Source: Eledone cirrhosa (taxonomy: Eukaryota). From it: a DNA stretch of 64,000 nt. Shown here piece after piece: positions 747 through 61,921 of the stretch (the stretch's first letter is position 1; each line of letters starts with the position of its first letter). The position numbers and the translations under genes are program-made. The notes beneath the pieces were generated by a model. That model saw only the letters and a program-made list of their open reading frames with translations. It had not been told where the DNA came from and made no database searches. Location of the stretch: contig OZ024748.1 in NCBI GenBank assembly GCA_964016885.1, forward strand, positions 31,558,001 through 31,622,000, read 5' to 3'.

Positions 747-748
<2 letters not shown>

Positions 749-1026
749 GGCTGCTCAGCCGTTAATTTTCATAAGGAAAGTATATACTTTCGAACGTTCA
801 ACTATCTGGCAGATGGGTAAACGGTGCTGATGATAGCTAACAAGCTTGAAACTAGTACATCGTTCCTGTGTCAGTGTTGAACAAAAAGGTGACGTGGTTG
901 CCTTAACACCGTATGGCATAAATTCAGGCTGTTCGCTTCGTTGACAAACAAACGAACAAAGCGGCCGGCGTTATAATAAACGTAGGCTAAACTGATGCGT
1001 GCATATATGTATGTATACCTGTATGC

Positions 1027-1064
<38 letters not shown>

Positions 1065-1112
1065 ATATATATATATATGTGCATGCTACTGTACGTCTGT
1101 ATACATATATGT

Positions 1113-1117
<5 letters not shown>
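747..1117 (+). mobile_element. Retrozyme-like family H, partial monomer
   Basis: Matches the 5' part of the tandem unit at 1809-3750; contains the HHR at 821-863. Confidence 0.85.
821..863 (+). ncRNA. Type-I hammerhead ribozyme, family H (copies 1883-1925, 2388-2430, 2886-2928, 3424-3466, 11537-11579 on +; 10997-11039 on -)
   Basis: ACGGUG-CUGAUGA-U-AGCU-AACA-AGCU-U-GAAAC-UA-GUA^CAUCGU; palindromic ACUAGU at stem III. Confidence 0.88.
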
Positions 1118-1524
<407 letters not shown>

Positions 1525-1808: not shown

Positions 1809-1810
<2 letters not shown>

Positions 1811-2088
1811 GGCTGCTCAGCCGTTAATTTTCATAAGGAAAGTATATACTTTCGAACGTTCAACTATCTGGCAGATGGGTAAACGGTGCTGATGATAGCT
1901 AACAAGCTTGAAACTAGTACATCGTTCCTGTGTCAGTGTTGAACAAAAAGGTGACGTGGTTGCCTTAACACCGTATGGCATAAATTCAGGCTGTTCGCTT
2001 TGTTGACAAACAAACGAACAAAGCGGCCGGCGTTATAATAAACGTAGGCTAAACTGATGCGTGCATATATGTATGTATACCTGTATGC

Positions 2089-2132
<44 letters not shown>

Positions 2133-2593
2133 ATATATATATATATCTGCATGCTACTGTACGTCTGTATACATATATGTATGTACGTATACATACATAC
2201 TTACATTTAAGTAAGTGCCATACTAAGAGTGAGAAATGAAATTTCGTTTTCATTTTTTTTCAACTAATCGTTTTCGGTATGCCTGACCGATTTAACTCAC
2301 TCAATATGCAAATTAGGCTGCTCAGCCGTTAATTTTCATAAGGAAAGTATATACTTTCGAACGTTCAACTATCTGGCAGATGGGTAAACGGTGCTGATGA
2401 TAGCTAACAAGCTTGAAACTAGTACATCCTTCCTGTGTCAGTGTTGAACAAAAAGGTGACGTGGTTGCCTTAACACCGTATGGCATAAATTCAGGCTGTT
2501 CGCTTTGTTGACAAACAAACGAACAAAGCGGCCGGCGTTATAATAAACGTAGGCTAAACTGATGCGTGCATATATGTATGTGTACCTGTATGC

Positions 2594-2625
<32 letters not shown>

Positions 2626-3091
2626 GTGTATATATATATATATGTGCATGCTACTGTACGTCTGTATACATATATGTATGTACGTATACATACATACTTA
2701 CATTTAAGTAAGTGCCATACTAAGAGTGAGAAATGAAATTTCGTTTTCATTTTTTTTTCAACTAATCGTTTTCGGTATGCCTGACCGATTTAACTCACTC
2801 AATATGCAAATTAGGCTGCTCAGCCGTTAATTTTCATAAGGAAAGTATATACTTTCGAACGTTCAACTATCTGGCAGATGGGTAAACGGTGCTGATGATA
2901 GCTAACAAGCTTGAAACTAGTACATCGTTCCTGTGTCAGTGTTGAACAAAAAGGTGATGTGGTTGCCTTAACACCGTATGGCATAAATTCAGGCTGTTCG
3001 CTTTGTTGACAAACAAACGAACAAAGCGGCCGGCGTTATAATAAACGTATTCTAAACTGATGCGTGCATATATGTATGTGTACCTGTATGC

Positions 3092-3184
<93 letters not shown>

Positions 3185-3629
3185 CATGCTACTGTACGTC
3201 TGTATACATATATGTATGTACGTATACATACATACTTACATTTAAGTAAGTGCCATACTAAGAGTGAGAAATGAAATTTCGTTTTCATTTTTTTTTCAAC
3301 TAATCGTTTTCGGTATGCCTGACCGATTTAACTCACTCAATATGCAAATTAGGCTGCTCAGCCGTTAATTTTCATAAGGAAAGTATATACTTTCGAACGT
3401 TCAACTATCTGGCAGATGGGTAAACGGTGCTGATGATAGCTAACAAGCTTGAAACTAGTACATCGTTCCTGTGTCAGTGTTGAACAAAAAGGTGACGTGG
3501 TTGCCTTTACACCGTATGGCATAAATTCAGGCTGTTCGCTTTGTTGACAAACAAACGAACAAAGCGGCCGGCGTTATAATAAAAGTAGGCTAAACTGATG
3601 CGTGCATATATGTATGTGTACCTGTATGC

Positions 3630-3677
<48 letters not shown>

Positions 3678-3750
3678 ATATATATATATATATGTGCATG
3701 CTACTGTACGTCTGTATACATATATGTATGTACGTATACATACATACTTA
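1809..3750 (+). repeat. Head-to-tail array of non-coding ~500-bp HHR units (family H, about 3.8 units)
   Basis: TAGGCTGCTCAGCC recurs at 1809, 2314, 2812, 3350; the period varies mainly through an internal (TA)n. Confidence 0.92.
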
Positions 3751-3766
3751 TATATATATATATATC

Positions 3767-3981
<215 letters not shown>

Positions 3982-4030
3982 GTATATATATATATACGTA
4001 TACATACATACTTATATATATATATATATC

Positions 4031-4165
<135 letters not shown>

Positions 4166-5398
4166 GTATAGCGGCGATGAATTAGTTTTGCGAGGTTTTT
4201 TATATGAAATCGTGTGTCGAAACAGATATTGTTATATTTGGGGAGGGTCATATTTGCGTAATATTGCCAGAATTAATAACAGAACACACTCACTGTTTGG
4301 TTGGTTTTCGCTTCTCGCTGTCTTTTATATATATATATCTGCGATCTAACTTACTCGGTCCTCAATGTTGCCATTGACTGACCGGCGGTCAAAAATAATA
4401 CAGATACAATATAGACAAACACATATATATATAGTTTACATAAATCTTTCGTTGCACATCTGCAACATCGTCAGTGGTGTTATATTCATTGTTCCTCCTG
4501 TTGTGTTGTATGTCTACGCCATTTTTTTTTTTTTGTTCAGTCCGTCTATATATTTATTTATTTATTTGCTTGTTTGTTTATCTTATTTTATTTTGTCTTC
4601 TTTGCGCATGCGTTTGCGTGTGTGATGTGTGACTAGTGTGTATAGTGTTGTGTCTGCTGGGTGACTAGTGTGTGTTTATGTGCTTGTGTATGTATTTATT
4701 TATCTTATTTTATTTAATTTAATTTACTTATTTATTTATACTTCTCTTAGGTCAGTGTTGTTTGTTTGGGTGTTGTTGTTGTTCCACTCATTCTTTCTGT
4801 TTAGCTTTGGTCTTCTAATTTCTATTTCACTGGCCTCTCTGATTTGCCTATCTGCTGGGTCATTCCTATGTTTAGATATTATTCTAATTTCTATGTTGTC
4901 TATGTCACCGTCATGATGTTGTCTAGCATGTTCGTATAGTACTGACCCGTTTTTTCGTCCTTTTAGTTCCCCCCAGTGTTGGTCTATCCTTTCACCTATG
5001 CTACGAGCTGTCTCACCTATGTATGTTGTTGTCGTGTTTCTGCAAGTACCCTCTGTACATCTTATGCTATAGACTACGTTTCTAGTTTTACAGTTTATCC
5101 GGTTTTATCCGGTTTTATCTAGTTTTACAGTTTATCTAGTTTTACAGTTTATCCGATGTTGCAGATGTGCAACGAAAGATTTATGTAAACTATATATATA
5201 TGTGTTTGTCTATATTGTATCTGTATTATTTTTGACCGCCGGTCAGTCAATGGCAACATTGAGGACCGAGTAAGTTAGATCGCAGATATATATATATAAA
5301 AGACAGCGAGAAGCGAAAACCAACCAAACAGTGAGTGTGTTCTGTTATTAATTCTGGCAATATTACGCAAATATGACCCTCCCCAAATATAACAATAT
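4166..5398 (-). mobile_element. PLE subfamily A2: 3' fragment (GIY-YIG remnant + pLTR, minus, 4166-5100) with an inverted pLTR copy (plus, about 5154-5398)
   Basis: Minus strand reads CKTRNVVYSIRC...YIGETARSIGER; tail encodes [15 protein letters not shown] as in family A; 4225-4470 is the reverse complement of 5154-5398. Confidence 0.85.
4439..4476 (-). ncRNA. Hammerhead-like motif, family A2
   Basis: CUGACGA-U-GUUGCA-GAUG-UGCAAC-GAAA-GAUU-UA; core and stem II clear, stem I weak. Confidence 0.6.
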
Positions 5399-5591: not shown

Positions 5592-8500
5592 TTATCTCCA
5601 GCCTGTATAGGATGGCCACTGGTGTAAGAGGGAGTTTGTTGCTGCAGCTCTTACCTTTCCCTCGTGTCTTGCTGTGGGCTCATCCGGGATCCTGGATAAC
5701 AAGGTGTCGAGATGTTTCTTGAAGACATCCACCTTCACGTCATGCAAATCTCTCAGATCCCTCGGCAGCCTGTTGAAGAGTTGAGGGCCCTTGAATCCCA
5801 GTCTATTGCAATACCTGCTCCTTATTCTAGATGTGGAAGACGGGACCTTTGGCACCACACAATGACGTCCTGTTCGACGGTTGGTCCAGCTCCCAATGCC
5901 AAAGTGTGGTGCTAGTCCCTCCAGGATTTTCCACATGTAGATCACTGCGTATCTCTCCCGTCTTCGCTCCAAGGAATAGAGGTTCAGTTCCTTTAGCCTC
6001 TCCCAGTAGCTTGTCTCCCTCATCTTGGCAATCCTCTTGGTGTAGCTTCGCTGGATTGCCTCAAACTCCGTGGTTAGTTTGACACTATGGGGTGACCACA
6101 ACTGGGAGCAGTTGTCCAGGCGGCTTAGGACAAATGTCCTCCATAGTGTCAACATGGTGTCTCGATCTCTTGTCCGGAAAGTCCTCAAGATCCAGCCAGC
6201 GAGTCGTCTGCACATTGTCGCCACTTTCATGATGTGTGAAGAAAAAGATGCATCATCGCTAATGTCTATGCCCAGGTCTCGTATCGATTTTAACACGGGG
6301 ATATCGGTCGGTCCTGATCCTGTGTTGTTGTGTTCCACTATATTTGTGTTTGCAGGTTTGTTTGGAGGTTTCTATTGTAGGGCTTGGAATTTGCCAGCAT
6401 TAAACTGCATGTTGTTTTCTTCCGCCCATTTGTATATGGCATCCAGATCCTGCTGTAAAAGAGCAGCGCCAGCCGGGTTTTTGATTGCCTGTGCTACCTT
6501 AGTGTCATCAGCATAGCTAGTGAGGTATGTTGTCGTATGTACTACAGAGGGCATGTCTGAGAGAGCCACCAAAAACAGTAGTGGTCCCAGGACTGTCCCC
6601 TGAGGCACCCCACTTGTTATTGGTGTTTGCTTTGAGAGGGTCCCATTTGATGCGACTGCCTGGCTTCTGTCCCTTAGGAAGCCATGCAGCCACTCACCTA
6701 CTTTTCCAGTTATGCCGAGTCCATATCATTCCGTGGGCGACCTTGTCAAAGGCCTTCGCAAAGTCAAGATATATCACGTCCGCATGTGAGCTGTCTAGTA
6801 GTTGTCTCAGTACCCAGTCGTAGTGATGTAGCAGCTGTGTAAGGCAGCTTCTTCCTGGGTGGAAGCCATGTTGCATGCTAGTCAGGCGGTATTTTTCCTC
6901 GAGGAAAGTGATCAGTTTCTTTCTGATGACTCGCTCCATGACCTTACTGATATGCGACGTCAGGGAGACTGGCCTATAGTCTTTGGCCTCCGCTCTGCTA
7001 CATCCTTTATGGATAGGGCATATTATGCCTTCTTTCAGCTCCCTGGGTAGTACACCGCTAGCCAAGGAGCTTCTGAAGAGCATCTTCAGTGGAGTTGCTA
7101 AGGCCCGCTTACATATTTTTAAGAGAACTGCTGCGAATCCATCAGGTCCAGCAGCCGAGTCTGTTCTAATTTCATCAATGGCGTACACCACATCCTCCTC
7201 CGTTATGTCTATGTGGTTGATGGTTGCCATTTCTTCATGTAGTGTTGTGGCACCAAAGAACTCCTCTGGCTTCGTTATTTGCATGTGCCTCAGTGGAAAT
7301 GTGAACACACTTTTGTACTGTTCGTTCAGTATTTCACATATCTCTTGGGGGTTTTCGGTTGATGAACCGTCCGTATGGAAGAGTGGCCCAATCTTGCAGT
7401 TTACTGTGCCAGTTTCTTTTGCAAATTTAAAGAAGGCTTTAGGGTTTGTTTTAATGTTTTCTATGGCCCGATTCTCTTTCTTTGCCCTCTCATTCTCATG
7501 GGAAAGCTTGAGTGCAATCTCGGTGCCAAGTAATGCACATTTCAAATAGGATTCCTTCTTGTTTTTGTTTTGTTGACTATTCAACTGGTTTGAGAGTTTA
7601 GTTCTACGTCTCATAAGGATTTTCCTATCTCTGGGAATAAAATTTTTGAGTCTGTTTGCCTTGTTCTCCGGGACCAACTTTTTGCATATAGTGTGTATCG
7701 TTGTCATGAAGTGTTGAAATTGTGTGTTTGTGTCTTGTGTGGCGGTGTTTTCACTCCATGATTGCTTCCGGATTTCTCTCTTAATCTTTTTCCAGTTAGC
7801 CTTGTAGAAGTTAAGGCTGGATAACGTCCCGGAGCTTCTTAGTGGTTTTGTCTCTGTTGGTTCTCTTGGACCACATATCATTAGCTCTACTAAGTTATGA
7901 TCCGAGAGAATTGTTGGTGTCACCTTTACATTGTGGATGAACACTTCGTTGTTTGTAAAACAGAGGTCCAGGACATTTTCGCCTCTTGTTGGAAGGAGTA
8001 TTGCATGGACAGCCTGTGTGTGAGGGCCAGCAGGGATTCCGTCTGTCTCTGTTCTATTGACGTCATTCCAGGGAGGAGGTGGCCCTCAGGCCATTTGACC
8101 TTTGGTAGGTTGAAGTCTCCCAGCAGTAGAATGTTGAGACCCTGGTCCAGTTTGTCAAGGACCTCTTCTATCCTACTTAGGCTATCCTCAAATTTACCCT
8201 CATGACTGGGGCATCGGGCGGCCGATATGTGACACATATTACTGTCTGTAGTTGCTTCATATGTACTGAGTTTGAATGTGTCAACAGTACAATTGGTGTG
8301 ACATCTTCACGGATATACAGAGCAACCCCACCATGAGTTCTCTCCTTCCTGTCCGAACGAAATACAGTATATTTCGGTATATGTATTTCTGCATCTGCTA
8401 TACTACTTGTCAGGTGCGTTTCGGTTAGTGCCATGCATAGTGCTTGATTGCTTATGGCTAAGTCTCCCAGGTAGGAAATTTTACTCATGTTACTGAGTTT

Positions 8501-8716
8501 CACCAGGCCTCTGGCATTCAGCAGCAGCACTGGTGTGACTTTTGGAGTGCCAGTAATGGCTGTCGGTATGACACCTGGTCTGGTGACAGCGGCGGCCACT
8601 CTGGGTCCTTTAATTGTGGTGGTCTCGAGTGCTGGTGTGGATGTGGATAACCCTGGCTCTGGAGACGATGCAGCCAGGTCAGCTGTCCCACAATCTTCTC
8701 TGCCATTACTAAAAAA
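5592..8716 (-). pseudogene. LINE ORF2 (APE endonuclease + reverse transcriptase), frameshifted
   Basis: Motifs [62 protein letters not shown] across ORFs 8177-8599, 7926-8237, 6694-7944, 6372-6608, 5592-6338. Confidence 0.93.
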
Positions 8717-9458
8717 ATGTTCTGCTCTGCTGCTGCCATCTGTATCTCGTCGGCATGTGCGTGCCTTCTCCTTGTTGGTGCGGCACGCGCGACATCAGCA
8801 TACTTCTGGAGCGGCTTATTTCGGCTTTGGCTGGGGCATGTTGCGCGAGTAAGATGGGCATAGTTCGTTTGAGACCTAGGGTGGGCGAATCTGCATCCCA
8901 TCCCTGTCTCTCCATGACAGCATGTCCCGTTCTTGAAAAACTTGCACATTACTTGGGTTTTTTGGCTCCCAGTGTCTCGGTGCTTTCTGTTCTTCCTTTG
9001 AACAGTTGTCCACTGGTCCCTCTGCGCTTGGTTCTCCTTCGGAAGGTGATTTCGCTTTTCACCTTTGCCCTTTGCTTGTTGGTTGCCCGGCCTGCCCTCC
9101 CTGCCTGTGGCGGAGGGTATATCATTTTCTTTCAGGTCCGTGTTTGTGCTCTCCTCCTTTTCTTTTTCCTTTTCCTTCTCTTTCTCCTCATCCCTCTCTT
9201 CGGTTTTCTCCTCCCTGAGGACACGGCTTAGCATCGCCATATGTGGCGCTATGAGGACATACGCCTTCTCAATTTCTTTTCTCTTTCTCTCTATCTGTGC
9301 CAGGGTCCTCAGAAACCCATGGCTTTTCAGGTTCTCCGCCATCTTTTTGCTTGGTGGAGACCCATCAGCCATGGTCCACCCCTTGATCAAAACCTCTAGT
9401 TCCATCTTTGACCAGTTTCACTGACTCCTAATTTCACCTTTTTCCTGTATGCAGCCAT
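8518..9458 (-). pseudogene. LINE ORF1 with CCCH-type zinc finger (probable frameshift near the start)
   Basis: ORF 8518-9405 contains CKFFKNGTCCHGETGMGCRFAH; an upstream ATG at 9458 is in another frame. Confidence 0.75.
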
Positions 9459-10744: not shown

Positions 10745-11883
<1,139 letters not shown>

Positions 11884-12902: not shown

Positions 12903-13003
<101 letters not shown>

Positions 13004-13018
13004 GTGTGTGTGTGTATA

Positions 13019-14281
13019 TAAAGGTGATGCACTAGATAGAGGAAATTATAGAGGTATGAAGTTGATGGACCAGGTCATGAAAGTAACAGAAAGAGTTATA
13101 GCACAGTTGATTAGGGACCGGGTGAAAATAGACGAGATGCAATTTGGGTTTGTACCAGGAAGAGGCACCACTGATGCCCTCTTCCTTGTGAGGCAATTAC
13201 AGGAAAAGTACCTAGCTAAAAGTAAGCCACTCTACTTGGCATTTGTCGACCTTGAGAAAGCCTTTGACAGAGTTCCACGTGCTGTAATCTGGTGGGCTCT
13301 TAGAAAACTAGGAGTAGATGAATGGCTTGTGAAAGCGGTCCAAGCCATGTATAGGGGAGCAGTCAGCAAAGTTAGGATTAGCAATGAGTATAGCGATGAA
13401 TTTAGCGTACAGGTTGGGGTCCACCAGGGCTCTGTTCTTAGCCCCCTCCTGTTCATCATAGTCCTGCAGGCAATAACGGAGGAGTTTAAGATCGGATGCC
13501 CATGGGAACTCCTGTATGCTGATGACCTCGCACTCATAGCTGAATCTATGGTAGAACTAGAGAATAAATTCCAACCTTGGAAGCAGGGACTAGAAAGAAA
13601 GGGTCTCAAAGTCAACATGACAAAGACTAAGGTCCTTGTAAGTAGACGAGAAAACAGAACCCAGATCCCCTCAGGGAAATGGCCTTGCTCAGTATGTAGG
13701 AAAGGTGTAGGTAGGAACTCCATTCTCTGCCCCAAATGCAAACAATGGGTACACAAGAGATGTAGCGGGATCTCAGGAAGCCTACATTTTTAATTAAGCT
13801 TCTCAGGAAGCTTAATTAAGAATGTAGGATTCACATGCAGCAGCTGTGCTGAAACAGCAAGCAAACAGCCACAGGAAACAAGTACCACCAATCTCTGGGA
13901 GGGCTCTGTAGAAACAGTAGACAGCTTCTGCTACCTAGGTGACCGAATTAGCAGCGGAGGTGTACATGGGTACAAGCTGAAGCATATAGACAATATGCCC
14001 CCACACCCCCCGCCGCAAGGTGGTCGTGGAGGTGCCACGGCAAAAAAGCACCCAGCCCACACTGTAAAGTGGACGTGTAGGCACCACGAAAAAGCACCCA
14101 GCACTAACTGTAAATGAGGTTGGTGTTAGGAAGGGCATCCAGCTGTAGAAATCAAGCCAGATCAGTTCCTGTATGAGCAAGGCATGGTCAGCCGACCAGA
14201 CACTGCCCACAACAGGACAACCCGTCTAACGCATGCTACCATGGAAGAACGGACGTAAAACTGTGATGATGATGATGATGA
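13019..14281 (+). mobile_element. 5'-truncated, internally deleted RTE-clade LINE
   Basis: [56 protein letters not shown]-like CSVC..CPKC..WVHKRC; (GAT)n tail. Confidence 0.9.
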
Positions 14282-14610: not shown

Positions 14611-17600
14611 ATATTTCGTTTCTGAATTTGTTTAGCAAGATTCTTTATCTGAAATCGTGTGTTGAAACCGATATTGTTATACTTTGGGAGGGTCATGTTG
14701 CCAATAAGAAACACACGCACCAGCTGCTTTCATTTAAATTTATTATAATAAATTTATAAATTTAGGAATTTATAAATTTCTGGTTGGTTGGTTGGTTCCA
14801 CAACCAGATAGTTGTTTATATATTGTCAACATCACTACTTACAATTAAAGACAAATTGAAAACACACACACACATAGAACAAACAACCAACCGGTAACAT
14901 GTAAATAAACAAATAAATAAACGAATATAAAGACACACAGACACCCGGATGCGGCGCATGCGCACACTGAGCACACAACACACACACAGAAACAAAATGG
15001 CGTAGGATAGAACAAAGGAGAGGCACAAAAACAAAGAAAAGTATCCCCAGTCACTGAAGAGGTCACAGAATGTGTGACGAAAGAACTTTGACAATATATA
15101 AACAACTATCTGGTTGTGGAACCAACCAACCAACCAGAAATTTATAAATTTATAAATTCCTAAATTTATTATAATAAATTGAAATGAAAGCAACTGGTGC
15201 GTGTGTTTCTTATTGGCAACATGACCCTCCCAAAGTATAACAATATCGGTTTCAGCACACGATTTCAGATAAAGAATCTTGCTAAACAAATTCAGAAACG
15301 AAATATCGTAAGCCTTAGCCAGGCTAACAAGATATAGAAAACCACCATGTTCTGTTGTCTACGAAAAACCATAACATCTCGACAACTACACTTCATAAAA
15401 GAATGTGCCTCGTCCCGAGTTTACACCAACACCATCAACACCGACGTAAGAAGATTACAACTCACCAAAAAACAAGCAGATAGGCTAAAACGAACACTAA
15501 TTCTAAACATAAAAAAGAAGATCTATAGAGAATTAAGTGATCAAGAAAAACATAAGCGTAACCTAATACAAGAAATAACTAGGATCACCATACCAAGAGA
15601 GAAACTAATATTTATAAGCCTTATACGTCCTGAAGAACAGTACATTGCTCAAGAATATGATTAGCACTTTAACAAAAAACTAAAAAGTGTCTTAAGCAGA
15701 TAAAACTAAAACTAAATCAGGATACTGTAGAGAATACCAATAGATATCCCGACAAAATTGACGGTATAAATATGGCCGACACCTCATTAACAGATGAGTT
15801 CAACAACAACAACAACACAAATATATACGGCAACACGGCAATAGACCCTGATGAATTATCTGTATTACTTCTACCACCGAAATGTGCGACATTCAAGAAT
15901 GTAAATATGATTAGTTGTCTGTCAGAAATAGAAAAATCATTTACAAAATTACGTTGGAGCCTCAAAAACAAAAACAAAAACAAAAGTAACAACATACGTA
16001 CACACATATACAACACACATCCCAACAACAACAGACACACAGACACAAACAACAATAACAACAACACACACACCAACAATAATATCATACTCAGAAACAA
16101 CAACAACAGACACGCAGACACAAACAACAATAACAACACACACAACAATAATAACACACACGGAGACAACAACAACAACAACACACATCAACAACAGCAC
16201 ACATCAACAACAACAACACACACACATTCAATGCTTCTCACCACCACAACAATCTTAACAAACACACAGACACAGAAAACAAGTAATGACAGTAGCACAG
16301 AAATCACAGAAATAAGGGAAAGTAATAGGATTAAAAGGAGAAGGGAGACTATGGACAAAGAAAATAACCAAGACGAACCCACAGACACACAAAATAGAGT
16401 AGATAATAACAATGAGCCAGTGGAAAGAGACAAGAGTAATTATGAGAGACATAGAAACAACCATGAGGCTGTTGGTTGAAATAGAAATAGAAACAACACA
16501 ACTAACAATAACAATAGCACTAGTACACATAAAGCAGCAGCCTGGAACTCTACTTTTTATAATCCCTCCGATAAGTCGTTCGACCTGCGACGAGTCCACG
16601 CTACGACTTTACCATTTAACAAACGCACGCAATTGCCGTCGCAGGTCGATGAACAAACAGAAGCACAATTTAGTATAGCTAAATCCGAACTTAGAAATAT
16701 TATAGAACAGTATAGCAAGAAGCATAATAGAATGGAGGCCCAGCAACTGGGAGAAAAATCTGCAAATGGCTTGCGTAAGCTCATGCAGCGCTCGCGTAAT
16801 GGAGAGATAGCATGCTTTCCAACAGACAAGTCTGGCAGAATGTCGGTTGACAGCCTGCCAAACTACATCCAGGCAATGCAACCCCACATCACTAACACAA
16901 GAGAGGTAACACCGCAGGAGCATGAGGATAGAGAAAAAGCCCTCAATGCCCATATGGTGATGTGGACGAATATAATGCAGCCCAACAAAAGGACTGCCAA
17001 CAACTTCCAGACCTGGAACAATGACGTGCCGGCGTTGTATGGGCTTCAAAAAGACCATAAAACGGGCAGTGACCCTGTCACCGGACCACCAACAAGACCA
17101 GTCTGTGGAGCTAACATTGCTAGTAACTACAGACTGTCCTACTTCCTCTCCCTGATCATACGCCCCATCATTGAAATGTTCCCAGATGTATGTGACAGCA
17201 CGGAGGACCTCCTCAGCAGAATCGACGAGAGTAACCGATCTAGGGACCTAACAAACTGTATAATAGGTAGTATGGATGTTGTGTCCCTGTATCCATCTAT
17301 TGACGTGGATTTTGCTGTGGAGAAATGCGTAGAAATGATCAGTGAGAGCAATGTTGAGTTCCGTGGGATTGATACCAGTGAGCTGGGACTCCTACTTAAA
17401 CTTACCTATAGTAATAATTACCTAGACACATATGACCTTAGCAACCTGTGCCCTACAAGACCAGCAAGAGGCAGACCACCTACCATTACCTCAATGGCCA
17501 AGAAAACCCACACAGATAGATGGACCAGAGCCAAACGGACACCCAAAAACCACGATGAACTGAAGAAAATGATTGCACATGCGGTAGGAGCCAGCATAGA

Positions 17601-19295
17601 ACTAACCCTTAAGGAACATATGTTCAAATTTAATGGAAAAACATATGCCCAAGAGGAAGGAGCAGCCATTGGTGTTAGCATTGCAGGCGACATAGCTAAC
17701 TTATTCATGGTATGGTGGGACAGTAGACTTAAACTTAAAGAACAATTAGAAGATCCCTTAACCCTGATAATGTACTCCCGCTACGTTGATGATATAAACA
17801 TCGTAGTTAAAACACCCCCACTAGAGAACAGTCAGGAATTAGAGAAATACAATGGAAAGCATCCAGCAAATAGCTAACTCCATCCACCAGAGTATTAGAG
17901 TTACTATAGACTACCCAAGCAAACACCCCAACCATCGATTACCTGTACTAGACACAGAGCTCTGGTTAGATACCATTAATAACAAAAGAAAAAACCTCCA
18001 TTCCCATTATTCCAAACCCATGACTTCCAAATATCTGATCCACCGAAACTCAGCTGTTTCGGACCATACCAAAATCAACATACTGATTGCAGATTTGGTA
18101 CGGGTGATGAGAAACGTGTCCCGCATGTGCAACCCCGAAGAACGAGAGAGACACATACAACACTTCATCCACCGTATGCAGTTCTCTGGTTACAATCAGA
18201 GAGATAAAATCAGAGTGTATAGAGGAGCCAGAACCAAATGGGAAAAAATGGGAAATAATGACACAAATGGGACCTGCCCCTTGTATAGGAGCAAATTTTG
18301 GAATAGAATAGAAAGAACTAGGAATAAGGCTAATAGAATAAACTCATGGTATGATAGCAATAAATACCAGAGTATAATGTTCATCGATACAACCCCTAGA
18401 GGTGAATTAGCTTACAAATTTAGAAGAGCCCTAGATAAACATAAACTCAATATTAAGATAGTAGAAAGACCAGGTACCTCCGTAAAAACACTTATTAGCA
18501 AAACATACTCTTTTCAAAGACCCCCCTGTATAGATAAGAAATGTATAACCTGTAAAATAAGCCCCCATATTAACTGTAAAACTAGAAATGTAGTGTATAG
18601 CATAAGATGTACTGAAGGACAATGTAGAGACAAAAATATAGTGTACATAGGTGAGACAGCTCGTAGTGTAGGGGAACGGATAAATGAACACTGGCGAGAC
18701 CTTCAAGATAGTAAAGAATCATCTGTACTCTACCAACATGCTAAAGTAGTACATAAGGGAAAATTAGAGAACATAGAAATAAAAATAGAATCTACACACA
18801 GAAAAGACGCAATGTTTAGACAAATCACAGAGGCAATAAACATAAAAGAATTACAACCAAAATTAAATAGAAAATATGAGTGGAACAGCAACATCACAAC
18901 TTACAATTAAGGACAAAATGAAAACACACAACCAACTGGTAACATGTAAATAAACAAATAAATAAACGAATATAAACACACACAGACACCCGGATGCGGC
19001 GCATGCGCACACTGAGCACACAACACACACACAGAAACAAAATGGCGTAGGACAGAACAAAGGAGAGGCACAAAAACAAAGAAAAGAATCCCCAGTCACT
19101 GAAGAGGTCACAGAATGTGTGACGAAAGAACTTTGACAATATATAAACAACTATCTGGTTGTGGAACCAACCAACCAACCAGAAATTTATAAATTTATAA
19201 ATTCCTAAATTTATAAATTTATTATAATAAATTGAAATGAAAGCAACTGGTGCGTGTGTTTCTTATTGGCAACATGACCCTCCCAAAGTATAATA

Positions 19296-21059: not shown

Positions 21060-23008
21060 CAGGCACATAAAAACAGCTCTACAGGCAGAAAATGCAGATA
21101 GGTAAGAGGTACTCACATAATGCAGATAGGTAAGAGGTACTCACATAATGCAGAGAAGTAAGAGGTACTCACATAACCATAGTGGCCGTATTTCAGGTTG
21201 AGGAGGGGTGGGGTAGGGTGGGATGGAGGTTTAGGTGCCAATAGGAGGAGGTCGTTTTTGGCCATCGGGCTTTAACACTGGCTTAAAGTATTTGAAAGTT
21301 GTAAAGTTCTTGTGCATGCAGTTCGGGCAGTGTTCAGAGAGTTTGTTCAGTAGCGGGCCCTTGGCGAATAAAATTTCGTAGCTTGGTGACATACAAAGTT
21401 CGCAGCCCTTGTGTCCTCCGTTGTAAGAGCGCGCTTTCTGGAGTATTTTACATTTAAGCGTGAAGGGGGTGGAGTTCCTTTTGAGGTTCCAAACATAGGA
21501 GGCGAGTGTTGTCTGGTTTGATTTGTCCGGTCTTCTGAAGGAGTGGGTATGGGCATACCAACGGGTCTTAAAGTTGTTGTAGGTCATGCCGATGTAAGTT
21601 TTTTTGCAATCATCAGGGCCTGAGATGACATCGCATTTGTATACGATATCATTTGTGAGGCATTTGTTTTCGAGTGGGCATGCTTCCTTATTTAGGCAAT
21701 TACACAGAGCCCCAGTCCGGGCATTGGGTTCGGAGGTGGTTGGCTTATTTAATTTTTTAGAATTGTGGTTGGCTATATTCCTAGCTAGGTTAGGTGTGGT
21801 GGAGTAGGAGAGTTTTATTGTTTTCTTGTTAAAGATGGTGTGGTACCTATGTTGTATGGGGAAGTGTAATTTCAGCAAAGTGAAGAAAATCCTAGCTATC
21901 GGTGTAGAGACCTCTCTATTGAAGGGAGGGTTGTACCAGCTAATCAGCCTATGTCTATTCCTCCTCTGCAATCTTGCGGTGGTTTCTAGGTATATTATCT
22001 TTTCTTTAAATCCGCTGCGGGCGAGGGCGTCATTGTAGTAGGAGGCAGATGCGTTAAAAAATCTTTGTTGGCGGAGAGGCCAGATATTCTAATAGAGACG
22101 CTTTTTACTAGGTTATCAGTGATGTTTTGGGGGTGGTTTGAATTAACATTAATATATCTAAGGGACTCGTTAGGTTTCTGGTACGGGTAATAGAGGGAAG
22201 TATCTAGGTCGAGAGTGACATCTAAGAAGTTGGCCCTAGTCAAATTAGATTCTATAATTATACTAAATCCTAGATTAGAGAAGAATGAGCTTAAGTTTTT
22301 CCGAAACTCATCGGTGGTTCTGGGGTTAACCGTGTGCAGGGCGAAGAAGCCGTCGTCTCGGTATAAACCTCCGGTTAGGCCGGTAAAGAGGTTCTTCAGG
22401 TGATGTAGGATGTACAAGCCCACAAGGTCGCTAATTTCAGCCGAGTCACTCGCTCCCATGCTAACGTCAATTGGGGTCTGAGATTTCTTGTTGATCCAGT
22501 AAGATCCATCGTGGTATAGAAAGGTCTTACGGGCGTGGAGGATAACAACTTGCTCAGCATCGGTAATGGTGGTAAAATTCCTGGCAAAGTTAATTGCGTC
22601 CTTCAGGAGGGGCTCCGAGATAGAGGCATAGTAGTTTTCAATGTCGAGCTGCAGGAAACGAGTGTGGTGTTTGTCGGGTAATTCTTGGAACCTTATTGCC
22701 TCAGATGTTCTGCTCCAGAGTGGAAGTGGTAAGGCAGCCCGCAATGATGGTAGAACTCTATCCAGGAACTTCTTACTGATAGAGCCGATGTCTGAACGAG
22801 TGGGGTTGATAAGTATGACTGATGGTTTGTTGAGGAAGTTTCCCTTATGGTCATTCAGGGTAAAGTGCGGTTCGGTCGCGTAATTTAAGGGACTTGGCGA
22901 TTTCTTTTCCGGCTGCGTTTGTCTCAGTCAGTGCCATCTCTATTACCTTTTTGTAGGTGGTCGTGGTGGCATTTTTTGCCAGCTTATTGTAGGTCTGTGG
23001 GTCTACCT
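21060..23008 (-). mobile_element. PLE family B1 (YRDD type, possibly Hydra clade), 5'-truncated and frameshifted; coding remnant 21231-23008
   Basis: QLDIENYYASI, MGASDSAE, GLYRDD, NFLDVTL, WYNPPFN, CNC..CPLENKC, IVYKC..YIGMT..FKTRW; about 28-bp tandem repeat x3 in the 3' UTR (21091-21177). Confidence 0.88.
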
Positions 23009-23020
23009 CATATATATATG

Positions 23021-23052
<32 letters not shown>

Positions 23053-23065
23053 TATATGTATATAT

Positions 23066-23097
<32 letters not shown>

Positions 23098-23110
23098 GTA
23101 TATATATGTG

Positions 23111-23141
<31 letters not shown>

Positions 23142-23144
23142 GTG

Positions 23145-23175
<31 letters not shown>

Positions 23176-23190
23176 GTATATATATATATG

Positions 23191-23221
<31 letters not shown>

Positions 23222-23385
23222 GTATATATATATATGTATATGTATATATATATATGTATATGTATATATATATGTATATATATGTATATATATATATGTA
23301 TATATATATGTATATATATATATGTATATATATATGTATATATATATATGTATATATATATGTATATATGTATATATATATATGT

Positions 23386-24923
23386 ATCAAACAACCCCGC
23401 ACTCGATGCCTTCGAGCTGGACCTTATGAACATGATAAGTGAAACTAAATTTAAAAAAAGAACAAATCACAACAAATTGCAAAATGACTTAAATACATTA
23501 CTTAAAAAACTAAAAGACACTAACGGTGTCATAGTAAAAGCAGACAAAACATCAAACGTATACTCTATGGACATTAACACATACAATAACTTTATTCAGC
23601 GTGAACTACATAAAAAATATAAAAAAACTAATGAATCTACACTCACCAGCATAAACATGGAGGGCCTCAAGATAGTTAATAAACTCGGAATTTCAGATAG
23701 GATCGAACCGCTTACCCCGTGCAACCCTACATTTAACCTGAAAGATCACAAAAATAACTTTGAAACTAATCCCACCATTAGATTAATATGCCCATCCAAG
23801 TCAGACATAGGTAAAATTAGCAAAAACATTCTAGATAGGGTAATCGCACAAATAAAGGGTAAACTAGAAATCAATTTATGGGGCAACACTAACGAGGCAA
23901 TTAAATGGTTCAATAAAATACAAAATAGGGAGACGTGTAACTTCATACAATTTGATATAGACGACTATTATGCATCCATATCCCCAGCTACCCTAGATAA
24001 GGCGCTTATATTTGCCCAAAATAACTCTAATCTTACCCATGATGAAATTGAAATAATAATAGCGGCTAGAAGGACTATCGTAAAATTTGAAAATAACTAC
24101 TGGGTAAGAAAGGATAGAATAAATAGCTTCGATATTACAATGGGATCAAATGATTCTGCGCAAATTACAGATATCGTGGGGCTATTCATAGCACACAACC
24201 TACATAAGGAATTCAGTAACCTCCAAGGAGGAATTTATAGGGACGACACGTTACTTATAGCTAGGAACCTAAACAACCAGAGCATGGAAAGACTAAGGAA
24301 AAATATTAGAATATTCTTCAAAAAACTAGGCCTAAGTATTACCTACGAACTAAACCATAAGAAGGTAAATTTTCTAGATGTAACTCTAAATCTAAATACT
24401 GGATTAATAGAACCTTTCCACAAAAATAATGAAAATCTTGCCTACATTAGTTACAACTCAAATCGCCCCAAATCCATAATTAAATCCGTAGCACGTAGTA
24501 TATCCCTCCGAATATCCCGCCTATCCTCAAACCTAGAAATCTTTAACGAGCATGCTGACTATTATAATGCAGCATTAAGTAGGGCCCGTCATAAAGATAA
24601 ACTACAGTATATAGTGAATAAGGACAACATAAACAATCCTAGTAATTTCTACTCCAACCGCTCACATAATAATAGGAATAGCTTGACTAGACATAGGGTT
24701 AGACATGTAACACCTAGAGTAAACGGCCAAAACACTAATAACGTAAACCCTAGAAACAATAGAAGAAACAGACAAAGAAAATACCTATGGTTCAACCCAA
24801 TATTCAACTCCTCTATAAAAACTAGACTGCCCTCTACATTCTTTAAACTAATAGATAAACACTTCCCTATCTCGCATAGATATCACAAAATACTCAATAG
24901 ATCTACTATAAAACTCTCTTTCT
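23386..24923 (+). mobile_element. PLE family B2 RT fragment (open frame, truncated at both ends)
   Basis: [43 protein letters not shown]; near-identical to the minus copy at 33717-35046. Confidence 0.9.
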
Positions 24924-24924
24924 T

Positions 24925-26566
24925 GACATAGCTAACTTATTCATGGTATGGTGGGACAGTAGACTTAAACTTAAACTTAAAGAACAATTAGAAGACAGCT
25001 TAACCCTGATAATGTACTCCCGCTACGTAGATGATATAAACATCGTAGTTAAGACACCCCCACTAGAGAACAGTCAGGAACTAGAGAAAAACACAATGGA
25101 AAGCATCCAGCAAATAGCAAACTCCATCCACCAGAGCATTAGAGTTACTATAGACTACCCAAGTAGACACCCCAACTATCGATTACCTGTACTAGACACA
25201 GAGCTCTGGTTAGATACCATTAACAACCAAAAACAAATCCTCCATTCCCATTATGCCAAACCCATGACTTCCAAACATCTGATCCACCGAAACTCGGCCA
25301 TTTCGGACCATACCAAAATCAACATACTGATTGCGGATTTGGTACGGGTGATGAGAAATGTGTCCCGCATGTGCAACCCCGAAGAACACATACAACACTT
25401 CATCCACCGTATGCAGTTCTCTGGCTACAATCAGAGAGATAGAATCAGGGTGTATAGAGGAGCCAGAACCAAATGGGAAAAAATGGTAAATAATGACATA
25501 AATGGGACCTGCCCCTTGTATAGGAGCAAATTTTGGAATAGAATAGAAAGAACTAGGAACAAGGCCAATAGAATAAACTCATGGTATGATAGCAATAAAT
25601 ACCAGAGTGTAATGTTCATCGATACAACCCCTAGAGGTGAACTAGCCTACAAATTTAGAAGAGCCCTAAATAAACATAAACTCAATATTAAGATAGTAGA
25701 AAGACCAGGTACCTCCGTAAAAACACTTATTAGCAAGACATACCCGTTCCAAAGACCCTCATGTATAGATAAGAAATGTATAACCTGTAAAATAAGCCCC
25801 CATATTAACTGTAAAACTAGAAATGTAGTGTATAGCATAAGATGTACTGAAGGACAATGTAGAAACAAAAATATAGTGTACATAGGTGAGACAGCTCGTA
25901 GTATAGGGGAACGGATAAATGAACACTGGCGAGACCTTCAAGATAATAAAGAATCATCTGTACTCTACCAACATGCTAAGATAGAACACAAGGGTAAATT
26001 AGAGAACATAGAAATAAAAATAGAATCCACACACAGAAAAGATGCAATGTTTAGGCAAATTACAGCATAAAAGAATTACAACCAAAATTAAATAGAAAAT
26101 ATGAGTGGAACAGCAACATCACAACTTACAATTAAGGACAAAATGAAAACACACACACACCAAACCAACAACATGTAAATAACAAACAACCAACCAACAA
26201 CATGTAAATAAATAAACAAATAGATAAATGAACACAAACACACACAGACACCCAGATGTGGCGCATGCGCAAACTGAGCACACAACACACACACAGAAAC
26301 AAAATGGCGTAGGAAAGAAGAAAGGAAAGGCACAGAAACAAAGAAAGGAATCCCCAGTCACTGAAGAGGTCACAGAGTGTGTGACGAAAGGACTATGACT
26401 ATATATAAACAACTATCTGGTTGTGGAACCAACCAACCAACCAGAAATTTATAAGTTTGTAGATTTGTAAATTTATAAATTTATAAATATATAATAAATT
26501 GAAGTGAAAGCAACTGGTGCGTGTGTTTCTTATTGGCAACATGACCCTCCCAAAGTATAACAATAT
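24925..26566 (+). mobile_element. PLE family A 3' portion (RT C-terminus, GIY-YIG, pLTR with HHR)
   Basis: ORF 24943-26070 matches 17707-18830; pLTR ends in (TA)n. Confidence 0.92.
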
Positions 26567-28579: not shown

Positions 28580-31500
28580 AATATATTTTAAACTATATTC
28601 TAAAAAAATCAATCTTTCGAATAAAATGATCAATTTGTGAAAAACCTAAAATAATCAATTTTTTTATACTTTTCGAAATATTTACTTTTGATTTCTAAAA
28701 TTGATTTTTTAGGTTTTTCACAAATTGATCATTTTACACAGTATTTGTAAAAAATGTTTTTTTTCATAAAAATGCGTTTATACATGTTTCGACACGTTGA
28801 AAAATTTTTGAAAAATAAAAAATATATATCAATTTTCGAAATCAGAAAGTATATATTTCGAAAGAAAAAAAATCAATCTTTTTTGAAAAAAAAACAATTT
28901 TTCGAATAAAATGATCAATTTGTGAAAAACCTAAAATAATCAATTTTTTTATACTTTTAAAAATATTTACTTCTGATTTCTAAAATTGATTTTTTTAGGT
29001 TTTTCACAAATTGATCATTTTACACAGTATTTTGAAAGAATGTTCTTTTTCAAAAAAATACGTTTATACATGGTGTTTCGACACGTTGAAAAATTTATGA
29101 AATATCAATTTTCGAAATCAGAAAGTATATATTTCGAAAGAAAAAAAATCAATCGTTTTTTAAAAAAAACAATTTTTCGAATCAAATGATCAATTTGTGA
29201 AAAACCGAAAATAATCAATTTTTTTATACTTTTCGAAATATATATCAATTTTCGAAATCAGAAAGTATATATTTCGAAAGAAAAAAAAATCAATCTTTTT
29301 AAAAAAAATCAATTTTTTTGATTATTTTAGGTTTTTCACAAATTGATCATTTTACACAGTAGTGTAAAATGATCAATTTGTGAAAAACCTAAAATAATCA
29401 ATTTTTTTATACTTTTCGAAATATTTACTTCTGATTTCTAAAACTGATTTTTTTAGGTTTTTCACAAATGGATCATTTTACACAGTATTTGGAAAAAATG
29501 TTTTTTTTCAAAAAAATGCGTTTATACATTGTATTTCGACACGTTGAAAAATTTTTGAAAAATACAAAATATATATCAATAATCGAAATCAGAAAGTATA
29601 TATTTCGAAAGAGAAAAAATCAATCTTTTTTGAGAAAAAACAATTTTTCAAGTAAAATGATCAATTTGTGAAAAACCGAAAATAATCAATTTTTTTATAC
29701 TTTTCGAAATATTTACTTCTGATTTCTAAAATTGATTTTTTTAGGTTTTTCACAAATTGATCATTTTACACAGTATTTGGAAAAAATGTTTTTTTTCAGA
29801 AAAATGCGTTTATACATTGTATTTCAACACGTTGAAAAACTTTTGAAAAATACAAAATATATATCAATTTTCGAAATCAGAAAGTATATATTTCGAAAGA
29901 GAAAAAATCAATCTTTTTTGAGAGAAAACAATTTTTCGAATAAAATGATCAATTTGTGAAAAACCGAAAATAATCAATTTTTTATACTTTTCGAAATATA
30001 TACTTCTGATTTCTAAAATTGATTTTTTTAGGTTTTTCACAAATTGATCATTTTACACAGTATTTGGAAAAAATGTTTTTTTTCAAAAGAATGCGTTTAT
30101 ACATTATGTTTCGACACGTTGAAAAATTTTTGAAAAATACAAAATATATATCAATTTTCGAAATCAGAAAGTATATATTTCTAAAGAAAAAAAAATCAAT
30201 TTTTTTGAAAAAAAACAATTTTTCGAAATACTGTGTAAAATGATCAATTTGTGAAAAACCTAAAATGATCAATTTTTTTATACTTTTCGAAATATTACTT
30301 CTAAAATTGATTTTTTTAGGTTTTTCACAAATTGATCATTTTACACAGTATTTGTAAAAAATGTTTTTTTTCATAAAAATGCGTTTATACATTGTTTCGA
30401 CACGTTGAAAAATTTTTGAAAAATACAAAATATATATCAATTTTCGAAATCAGAAAGTATATATTTCGAAAGAAAAAAAATCAATCTTTTTAAAAAAAAA
30501 CAATTTTTCGAATAAAATGATCAATTTGTGAAAAACCTAAAAAAATCAATTTTAGAAATCAGAAGTAAATATTTCGAAAAGTATAAAGAAATTGATTATT
30601 TTAGGTTTTTCACAAATTGATCATTTTACACAGTATTACGAAAAATTGTTTTTTTTAAAAAAAGATTGATTTTTTTTTCTTTCGAAATATATCCTTTCTG
30701 ATTTCGAAAATTGATATATATTTTGTATTTTTCAAAAATTTTTCAACGTGTCGAAACAATGTATAAACGCATTTTTTTGAAAAAAAAACATTGTGTAAAA
30801 TGGTAAATTTGTGAAAAACCTAAAAAAATCAATTTTAGAAATCAGAAGTAAATATTTCGAAAAGTATAAAAAAATTGATTATTTTAGGTTTTTCACAAAT
30901 TGATCATTTTACACAGTATTTCGAAAAATCTTTTTTTATCAAAAAAAGATTGATTTTTTTTCTTTCGAAATATATACTTTCTGATTTCGAAAATTGATAT
31001 ATATTTTGTATTTTTAAAAAATTTTTCAACGTGTCGTAACACGATGTATAAACGCATTTTTTTGAAAAAATGTTTTTTTTCAAACAATTTTTCGAAAGAA
31101 AAAAAATCAATCTTACACAGTATTATTTTTCAAAAAAATTCGTTTATACATTATTTCGACACGTTGAAAAATTTTTGAAAAATACAAAATATATATCAAT
31201 ATTCGAAATCAGAAAGTATATATTTCGAAAGAAAAAAAATCAATCTTTTTTTAAAAAAAACAATTTTTCGAATAAAATGATCAATCTGTGAAAAACCTAA
31301 AAAAATCAATTTTAGAAATCAGAAGTAAATATTTATAAAAAAATTGATTATTTTAGGTTTTTCACAAATCGATCATTTTACACAGTATTTCGAAAAATTG
31401 TTTTTTTTCAAAAAAATTGATTTTTTTTTCTTTCGAAATATCGAAAATTGATATATATTTTGTATTTTTCAAAAATTTTTCAACGTGTCGAAATACAATG

Positions 31501-36833: not shown

Positions 36834-38009
36834 ATGGCTAACCAGCAAAAATCCAAACAGAACTGGTCTGATAATGAAATCGACATTCTAATAAACACAT
36901 GGCATTGCCTTTCCCAAACAGAAAATATAGATGCTTCATCTCTGAACGACATTGCTAAACGTACAGTTCAATTTTTGAAAACTCGATCTGAACAACAGAT
37001 TCAAAATAAATTAAAGCAAATCGAAATTGCTTTTAAATTAATCAATAAACATTTGGATAAACTACGGTGTGTTTTCTCTTCGAATGCTGTCCAGCAGCAG
37101 CAACAACAACAACAGCAGCTACAACAGCAACAGCAACAACAGCAACAACAACAACATCAACAACAGCTACAACAACAACAACAACAGCAACAACAACAAC
37201 AACAACGACAACAACAGTGTGAACCACTCCTTGATTCATCAACAATGGCCGATCTACTAAATGAAACTATTGACCCCCCAGTAGCCTCTGTCTCACAGCA
37301 TGAAACGCCACATCCTTTCTCTGGCCCAGCAGTCCAATCATCACCACTGCCAACATCTCTGCCTACTACTACTACTACTACTACAACATTTTTGTCTACT
37401 GCTATGTCAAGGAATTTACCTTCTAATACCAGAACAAGAACTCTCCCTCCCACAGTCCACAAAGGTCGTCAAATCCTACCCAAACCATCATCTACACCTC
37501 TCACAACACCCACACCCACATACCCACCCACTCGAAACCCCATCATTTGCCGCTACTCTCTACGCTATAGAATATGTACGGATAGTGGCTGCAAATTCAC
37601 CCATTTACCTAGGACAAAACGATCTATCCCCACAAACAGCCACCACCATAATACATACTCTAATTTAACACCAACACAACCACCAATAACTCAAACAAGG
37701 AATCCACAAATCTGCCGTTTTTCCCTGCGAGACAGATTGTGTTTAGACCGGGATTGTCCCTTTACCCATCTCCCGGGGACCCGTCGGATAAATGAAAATA
37801 AAATTAAAAATAAAAGCAAAAACAAAAACCATAACCTACATAAAAATAACCACTACCACAGTCACCAACAGTCTTCTAAACAGGAAACTTCTTCCTCTTT
37901 TTTAGCCATAATGAATCTGGCAAAAGAACTGGAAAAAAACATTCGAGCTATCACCCAGCACCACCCTCCACTATCACCCCACTGCACAAACTCCCATTGC
38001 TGCCATTAA
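36834..38009 (+). CDS. LINE ORF1p: Myb/SANT-like N-terminus, poly-Q, two CCCH-like zinc fingers
   Basis: 391 aa; WSDNEIDILINTW..RSEQQIQNKLK; CRYSLRYRICTDSGCKFTH and CRFSLRDRLCLDRDCPFTH. Confidence 0.88.
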   Translation: MANQQKSKQNWSDNEIDILINTWHCLSQTENIDASSLNDIAKRTVQFLKTRSEQQIQNKLKQIEIAFKLINKHLDKLRCVFSSNAVQQQQQQQQQLQQQQQQQQQQQHQQQLQQQQQQQQQQQQRQQQCEPLLDSSTMADLLNETIDPPVASVSQHETPHPFSGPAVQSSPLPTSLPTTTTTTTTFLSTAMSRNLPSNTRTRTLPPTVHKGRQILPKPSSTPLTTPTPTYPPTRNPIICRYSLRYRICTDSGCKFTHLPRTKRSIPTNSHHHNTYSNLTPTQPPITQTRNPQICRFSLRDRLCLDRDCPFTHLPGTRRINENKIKNKSKNKNHNLHKNNHYHSHQQSSKQETSSSFLAIMNLAKELEKNIRAITQHHPPLSPHCTNSHCCH

Positions 38010-41000: not shown

Positions 41001-41017
41001 TGGTGCCCAAATCCTGA
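37997..41017 (+). CDS. LINE ORF2p: APE endonuclease + reverse transcriptase (frame open from 37880; no AUG until 38321)
   Basis: 1006 aa uninterrupted; [45 protein letters not shown]. Confidence 0.96.

Positions 41018-54748: not shown

Positions 54749-54754
<6 letters not shown>
50886..54754. mobile_element. PLE family A inverted insertion: minus arm 50886-52405, plus arm 52404-54754
   Basis: About 1.5-kb inverted repeat; RT ORF 52403-53704; GIY-YIG ORFs on both strands; both 3' ends run into (TA)n. Confidence 0.93.
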
Positions 54755-58098: not shown

Positions 58099-58103
58099 GT
58101 ATA

Positions 58104-59442: not shown

Positions 59443-60020
<578 letters not shown>

Positions 60021-60041
60021 ATATATATGTATATATATATA

Positions 60042-61921
<1,880 letters not shown>

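Follow-up and report, generated by a model that had tools for sequence, protein, structure and literature searches.

What is the array at 1809-3750, a tandem repeat of units of about 500 nt that each carry a hammerhead motif: an ordinary satellite, or an insertion copied from RNA, and in the latter case by which enzyme and from what template? We addressed this question in the window, the whole 64-kb stretch of DNA analyzed here (C8:31558001-31622000 of a 3.0-Gb assembly), where TRF reported the array with a period of 498. Our reading, to which we give a probability of roughly 0.7, is that the repeat (family H) is likely a non-LTR retrozyme copied by the reverse transcriptase (RT)/endonuclease of a Penelope-like element (PLE), probably from a circular monomer RNA. 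The four type I hammerheads listed by an earlier sequence-only reading were recovered at the spacings it gave (505, 498, and 538 nt), with motif starts at 1883, 2388, 2886, and 3424.

1883-1925, plus strand: hammerhead 1, type I, with a CUGAUGA core, a helix II with a U-U base and an AACA loop, and predicted cleavage after 1919.
2388-2430, plus strand: hammerhead 2, with a broken stem I pair (2429) and cleavage predicted after 2424.
2886-2928, plus strand: hammerhead 3, predicted cleavage after 2922.
3424-3466, plus strand: hammerhead 4, predicted cleavage after 3460.

Each motif in the array had a CUGAUGA/GAAA/UA core, a helix I of 6-7 bp, a helix II of 4 bp with U-U at its base, and a helix III formed by the palindrome ACUAGU, in agreement with the CUGANGA / GAAA / UH core, three helices, and open helix I of the type I hammerhead. 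Hammerhead 2 was missed by a strict scan because G>C at 2429 breaks one stem I pair. Family H had no match in Rfam at the gathering score, and the 150 of 216 weak matches listed contained no hammerhead and were TA-driven miRNA models. The identity of the predicted ribozyme is based on its core consensus and on covariation with a sister family, H2, described below. Six of 17 ribozyme pairs were changed on both sides in the H versus H2 alignment, a count that, like that for the whole monomer, derives from essentially two lineages; the core was unchanged between the families. Position 17 of the H2 ribozyme was U or C in 135/135, and the invariance of the H2 core (0/11 positions variable, P about 0.09) was weak evidence when taken alone. 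The palindromic helix III suggests cleavage as a dimer, by analogy with palindromic helix III motifs that cleave as dimers within multimers (PMC4209133).

Other hammerhead repeats were also seen. At 59950-61700 of the window there was another hammerhead tandem repeat with a period of 629-634 nt, motifs at 60101, 60730, and 61359, and a long helix III. More hammerhead families, with TATATA or TGCGCA as helix III, were located at 43950, 46709, and 50228 (minus strand) and at 49462-49685, within a 10-kb (TA)n region. Around position 7445 of locus L037 were eight tandem hammerheads belonging to yet another family, in which helix II has U-U at its base and helix III is the palindrome ACGCGU. No motif was found by the hammerhead scan in two further repeats of the window, an AT-rich tandem repeat of 283-288 bp and a spaced repeat of ~524 bp (29365-31070 and 57900-59250). 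LINE-type RT frames were present at 5592-9417 (minus strand), 37880-41017 (plus strand), and 12990-13793 (plus strand), the second of which was open over 1,045 aa.

The exact 38-nt ribozyme core of H had 10,262 matches genome-wide compared to 0 for the reversed control, and tandem core pairs at a spacing of 456-517 nt numbered 1,217 + 4,579 = 5,796. The dispersal proposed by the sequence-only reading, as opposed to arrays restricted to this locus, was borne out by these matches and by the copy at 10750-11790 of the window. The number of core matches thus places family H among the dispersed non-LTR retrozymes, a known class, and the retrozyme identity first read from the array agrees with its layout of non-coding, head-to-tail monomers of ~500 nt, instead of an LTR layout, with one type I hammerhead per unit and thousands of copies. 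Open reading frames of 150 or more aa over the array were (TA)n read-throughs only, and an ORF of PLE-type RT plus GIY-YIG was absent from the monomer. The loci examined comprised 51 stretches covering the first 100 listed core matches, 13 more, 40 that were mostly multi-unit arrays, and 18 further ones; as they were chosen by core matches and multi-unit arrays, the array set is enriched for long arrays and intact ribozymes. Family H was abundant in DNA-type run X3 and gave two contigs in run X6. Two RNA-type runs, X1 and X2, from other than this organism, at 4% of words, gave no family H contigs, which is no proof of absence. On C3, from 12271876 to beyond 12320800 (L195-L197), an array of H units of at least 48 kb carried G at ribozyme position 17 (predicted inactive); this is a retrozyme turned satellite.

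The array and its surroundings contained the following features, in which S and L denote the two sites at which H insertions were found to end.

1809-3750, plus strand: family H insertion, single-armed, 3.8 monomers, 5'-truncated at monomer position ~170, with the fixed S site as its 3' end.
1385-1810, no strand: target (TA)n on the 5' side, adjoining a PLE pseudo-LTR (pLTR; 1112-1384) at its S-type 3' end.
3751-4170, no strand: target (TA)n on the 3' side, containing a locally duplicated S end at 3984-4020.
747-1118, plus strand: partial H copy with a fifth hammerhead (821-863) and the same 5' junction as at 1809.
10750-11790, no strand: head-to-head insertion of an older subfamily, whose minus arm ends at S (~10750) and plus arm at L (~11790), with the inversion point at ~11111.
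10997-11039, minus strand, and 11537-11579, plus strand: hammerheads of the 10750-11790 insertion.

As had been claimed, both boundaries of the array were at TA inside (TA)n, the start being TA/GGCTGC (1809-1811) and the end ACTTA/TATA (3750). Of the statement that the units differ mainly in their internal (TA)n, the variation in length and interruptions of this run was confirmed, but a few SNPs contributed too. On its far side, the (TA)n at 3751-4170 met another PLE, a minus-strand element, at its 3' end, so the array, which has one arm and ends at S, sits in (TA)n flanked by the 3' ends of two PLEs. The copy at 747-1118 belonged to a local duplication of PLE pLTR, (TA)n, and the 5' part of H, in which the duplicated upstream pLTR was identical at 269/273 positions, and another H copy just upstream of the window had its 5' junction in common with the 747-1118 and 1809 copies. 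The three full units of the array had a mean pairwise difference of 1.1%, and since they have diverged to this extent, the locus alone says little about the template.

Insertion ends were then mapped on a reference that runs from the end of the internal (TA)n, with cleavage after reference position 280. We found that 3' ends clustered at reference ~58-64 (S) and ~109-124 (L), ~60 nt apart. Among 199 non-edge 3' ends, 82 were S, 94 L, 17 in the internal tract, and 6 elsewhere. The sequence-only reading had suggested testing whether arrays begin at permuted positions; 176/199 of the 3' ends were at two fixed sites, away from the cleavage site, and only the 5' ends were scattered. Its proposal of insertion into (TA)n was upheld, with 170/176 of the S and L ends adjoining (TA)4+ and with 2-3 nt of TA/TAT common to junction and tract. 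Genome-wide, there were 3,246 S junction matches and, on the forward strand, 1,616 L junction matches, the reverse-strand count for L being inflated by overlaps. The corresponding features of the monomer were as follows.

2199-2212, also 2696-2709 and 3234-3247, plus strand: small predicted hairpin with the S end site, a candidate for reverse-transcription start 1.
2213-2270, plus strand: "tail" of ~60 nt separating S from L, in which an AU-rich hairpin is predicted at 2233-2254.
~2265, plus strand: L end site in unit 1, a candidate for reverse-transcription start 2.
2096-2146, plus strand: internal (TA)n of unit 1, the predicted tip of a long hairpin, dispensable and absent from H2.
2601-2643, 3099-3181, and ~3637-3692, plus strand: internal (TA)n of the other units.

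Most insertions had two arms in head-to-head orientation (72/127 non-edge blocks). Both outer ends were S or L in 57 of the 72 (15 dropped), and these comprised 55 S+L, 2 S+S, and 0 L+L blocks, a pairing with P of about 2e-14; of the S+S exceptions, L035 was nested. When the insertions were ascertained independently of the ribozyme, by junction positions on C1 0-81 Mb (69 S and 68 L), 25/27 outward-facing neighbours were again S+L, and of the two exceptions L212 resolved into two S+L insertions and L120 was a nested locus. The smallest insertion, of ~140 bp (L198), had both ends without ribozyme or internal tract. The inversion points showed 0-4 nt of overlap, a palindrome, or short filler in most of the 29 resolved. 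Thus H copies showed the 5' truncation and adjacent inverted copy of PLEs, with the tail on one end only. Target-site duplications, which in non-LTR retrozymes exceed 4 bp where they occur, were not resolvable inside (TA)n, and the local data held no clean pre-insertion (empty) site. At L037 and L110, the flanking DNA of one side reappeared inverted beyond the other side of the insertion.

Two further possibilities were considered. One was that the RT adds (TA)n de novo, raised because TA was missing 5' of 19/32 single arms with a non-tract 5' end. It is disfavoured: repeats lying beyond the 3' tract also have TA flanks in their other copies, and the 5' flanks are interrupted within other repeats, which is the pattern of target deletion. 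The other, that a single cDNA folding back is the general source of the second arm, was rejected, as the arm lengths were unequal.

The fixed ends also bear on how reverse transcription is primed. In the sequence-only reading, the internal (UA)n of the RNA would pair with the (TA)n target and prime the RT, and arrays would begin at permuted positions. When the 9 tract-ended or gapped cases were inspected, 5 proved to be later insertions with an S or L piece beyond, and for 4 (arms L054, L061, L066, and L086) no downstream piece was found, so that at most about 4/199 ends, which would fit this route, may lie in the tract. Against it, 176/199 ends were at S or L, the 140-bp insertion had no tract, and an older H copy that was inspected had only (TA)6. 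The sister family was most telling. H2 is a diverged repeat found beside one H locus (L115:1660-2110, minus strand), and also on C1 and elsewhere, with a monomer of 466-469 nt that is 57% identical to H in a global alignment and arrays of up to 31 units. It has no internal tract, its longest run being (TA)2. A pattern of shared motifs gave 6,624 matches, and 98/100 of those listed were H2; the 11 candidates from a DNA similarity search were a severe undercount relative to this. Among 37 H2 blocks, 27 were two-armed, both ends were S or L in 24, and 24/24 of these were S+L. Since H2 has the same ends and TA targeting without the tract, it leaves the (UA)n-priming idea unsupported and largely refutes it as the main route, and we regard that route as very improbable. 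The related idea that the internal (TA)n seeds new target sites stood at the DNA level, given the 5/9 inspected cases of later insertion in the tract, but not as priming by (UA)n. An insertion of 362 bp from another hammerhead-like family occupied L044:4156-4519, inside the internal (TA)n of H; it too had two arms, with a short end and a long end.

The H and H2 monomers had congruent predicted circular folds, and 26/90 predicted pairs were changed on both sides between them, again from essentially two lineages. A z-score of -11 for the fold was set aside as evidence because (UA)n self-pairing inflates it. One short motif was kept between the families.

2306-2313, also 2804-2811 and 3342-3349, plus strand: ATGCAAAT motif, conserved between H and H2 and nearly invariant.

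ATGCAAAT may correspond to the snRNA octamer, and it is possibly an internal promoter element. This reading serves as a lead only, because the motif also pairs in a predicted hairpin. Retrozymes have been described as seemingly promoterless (PMC7761336), and an snRNA-type promoter has been cited for newt satellite 2 (PMC2220036).

With ends and folds in hand, spread as an ordinary satellite through DNA mechanisms, such as unequal exchange or extrachromosomal DNA circles, can be weighed. The array of at least 48 kb on C3 and the local duplications are what such mechanisms would produce. Nevertheless, they would not produce 3' ends that are fixed while the 5' ends scatter, arms that pair S with L strictly, or covariation in RNA structure, which makes such spread hardly credible as an explanation of the family; the satellite mechanism is refuted as a means of dispersal and stays as a secondary process.

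We next compared the insertions with those of PLEs, which are described as leaving copies that are inverted and truncated at the 5' end, with a tail on one of the ends (PMC8557442, PMC3846280). By analogy, the anatomy of H insertions is the PLE "tail" signature. In vitro, the anole PLE PAc started reverse transcription at two internal sites and extended both strands (PMC11167929). H insertions very probably arose through PLE-driven twin priming at S and L. A coding PLE at 14.6-19.3 kb of the window showed a similar arrangement, its inverted pLTR ending at the long site and its direct pLTR ~60 nt earlier, both in (TA)n. Its frame had a CX4CXXC motif before GIY-YIG, as listed for Neptune and Nematis (PMC8557442). 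Other families in the examined loci also had TA-abutting ends, some of them paired. Pfam gave only a weak RVT_1 match on one PLE frame, and no autonomous PLE with sequence homologous to H, in its pLTR or elsewhere, was found in 0.95 Mb of loci. At 14617-19295, 24900-26560, 51050-54750, and 4148-5393 of the window there were coding PLEs with broken frames, whose pLTRs contain hammerheads and whose ends in (TA)n form the same short/long pairs. RT and GIY-YIG-like frames at 21231-24931 and 33069-34711 (minus strand), with no hammerhead found downstream, possibly belong to another PLE clade. The PLE frames at 18.4-26.3 kb were 100% identical in amino acids, at a constant offset, to those of L132/L031 about 34 kb upstream, and this match is a recent segmental duplication or an assembly duplicate.

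We then asked which RNA was copied. If cleaved linear RNA were the template, 5' ends would be expected at the cut, but none were in excess: there were 3 stops at the cleavage site versus 5.1 expected over 396 passes, and 2/128 5' ends fell within reference 275-287, in a set that was biased to intact ribozymes, by which the loci were mostly found, and non-uniform overall (KS P=0.007). Arms crossed the cleavage site up to 19 times. The median difference within arrays was 0.47% versus 3.1% between arrays (44 arrays), both arms of an insertion had the same tract type, and at L100_101 (C1:125.826-125.833 Mb) two monomer types alternated strictly and in phase on both arms. One of the L100_101 monomer types has an expanded, variable A-run. 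The rolling-circle reverse transcription put forward by the sequence-only reading therefore gained indirect support. The template was probably circular RNA, as judged from the lack of a 5' pile-up at the cleavage site, the homogeneous arms, and the conserved ribozyme.

Two linear templates were weighed against the circle. In the first, PLE twin priming at S and L copies an uncleaved linear read-through multimer, DNA duplication regenerates array length, and the ribozyme matters little for transposition. Such a template would agree with PAc in vitro, where ribozyme cleavage was not needed, mutants inserted normally, and unprocessed RNA was used (PMC11167929). Expansion at the DNA level is evident, as long H2 arrays had periodic variants confined to one arm, typical of DNA duplication; together with the G17 array on C3, these make multimers possible without circles. 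The L094_95 arms had a common variant pattern offset by one unit, which fits no simple monomer circle and fits a longer mixed template. Eleven young arrays had the same modal sequence at 353 columns, so the homogeneity of arrays could stem from a homogeneous linear source. However, cleavage shortens linear templates, and ribozyme-dead variants would thus be expected to spread; instead, the fold was kept with compensatory changes in two abundant families. In a check free of ribozyme bias, copies without the A before the cut (A17) in the tested context were only 216, versus 98 at a control position and more than 10,000 intact copies. Among the non-A17 copies listed, 55/100 were in one satellite, and the 30 inspected comprised 28 point variants and 2 truncations. 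We therefore consider the uncleaved multimer unlikely. Mirrored variants between arms, tried as proof of a linear template, were suggestive in two loci only and absent in 17 further loci.

In the second, cleaved linear monomers are copied and the RT, on reaching a monomer's 5' end, jumps to the 3' end of that monomer or of a different one, yielding seamless multimers without a covalent circle. The predicted fold brings the monomer ends close, and jumping would explain the mixed-unit arrays L109, L123, and L094_95. It is nonetheless quite improbable, since stops or junction changes at the cleavage site were not in excess and most arrays were homogeneous across both arms.

For the circular template, the following sequence of events may be proposed. 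The array would be transcribed, monomers cut by dimeric hammerheads through the palindromic helix III, and the monomers ligated to circles. As the junctions suggest, the PLE protein would bind the tail region of ~60 nt and nick (TA)n on both strands, and the two TA-3' ends would prime on UA/UAU at two internal sites. The sequence anatomy is that of the expected products, which appear as head-to-head arms, one ending at S and the other at L, joined with 0-4 nt of overlap or short filler, with single-armed copies occurring too. Each RT would then copy upstream across the ligation junction, complete anywhere from 0.1 to many turns, and stop at scattered positions. Local variant patterns show that DNA duplication later lengthens some arrays, and that the internal (TA)n slips and draws later insertions. 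A more specific version falls somewhat short of an even bet in our view: a PLE dimer may load once on the tail of one circle, with two RTs starting at its two sides, one per target strand, and chasing each other round the circle, which may carry its own snRNA-type promoter element. If true, the PLE tail, the inverted arms, and the retrozyme multimers would come from one reaction, and a non-coding substrate of 460 nt would be available for testing PLE integration on a ribozyme circle.

The retrozyme class is already known, and what matters here is the insertion anatomy that ties retrozyme integration to PLE chemistry. Integration of animal retrozymes and the origin of the PLE tail and inverted repeats are stated as open questions (bioRxiv 10.64898/2026.07.22.740005, PMC11167929, PMC8557442). 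Thousands of young insertions in two sister families give a quantitative rule of one arm per start site, the 140-bp insertion locates the cis-element by needing only the tail region, and the RT appears to pass the ribozyme site without stopping. Together, this anatomy makes the question of circle versus linear RNA testable with short RNA.

Like H, the non-LTR retrozymes of metazoans (Cervera and de la Pena 2020, PMC7229834: axolotl HHR_Amex2, coral, mussel, and newt satellite 2) are tandem repeats without coding capacity that carry type I hammerheads, occur in thousands of copies, are low in GC, and have a self-paired fold; as a further likeness, U-U at the helix II base and a helix III of two pairs are described for the ribozyme of HHR_Amex2. 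Compared to their monomers of 150-450 bp, that of H is longer (450-540 nt) and has an internal microsatellite and (TA)n targeting. Paired inverted arms with two fixed ends, as in H, do not figure in the part of that account available to us. Expression is shown for those retrozymes. Paired S+L arms of a retrozyme were unreported in the titles and abstract openings searched, where coverage was thin for subscription papers and early PLE work. A recent preprint (bioRxiv 10.64898/2026.07.22.740005) makes the same proposal as we do for H, that retrozymes are non-autonomous PLE derivatives mobilised by PLEs. It argues from co-occurrence and homology of pLTRs in Xenopus and prefers local amplification to account for arrays, and its main text, as far as seen, has no analysis of ends; for H the insertion ends are shown and no homologous PLE was found. 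Chlamys MRC1-type elements (PMC8557442) are, like H, non-autonomous PLE passengers with multicopy head-to-tail insertions, but they resemble their autonomous partners at the 3' end and their clade is described as having no canonical hammerheads. The EN+ PLEs (Penelope/Poseidon, Neptune, and Naiad; PMC8557442, PMC3846280, PMC11167929) share with H the 5' truncation, a neighbouring copy that is inverted and likewise 5'-truncated, a tail confined to one end, two internal RT starts, AT-rich or (TA)n targets, and, presumably for H, nicking and extension of both strands. They differ in that H has no ORF and a tail of ~60 nt versus the 30-40 described for PLEs. Finally, PAc in vitro showed no difference in start site between strands (PMC11167929), whereas the pairing of S with L in H is near-absolute.
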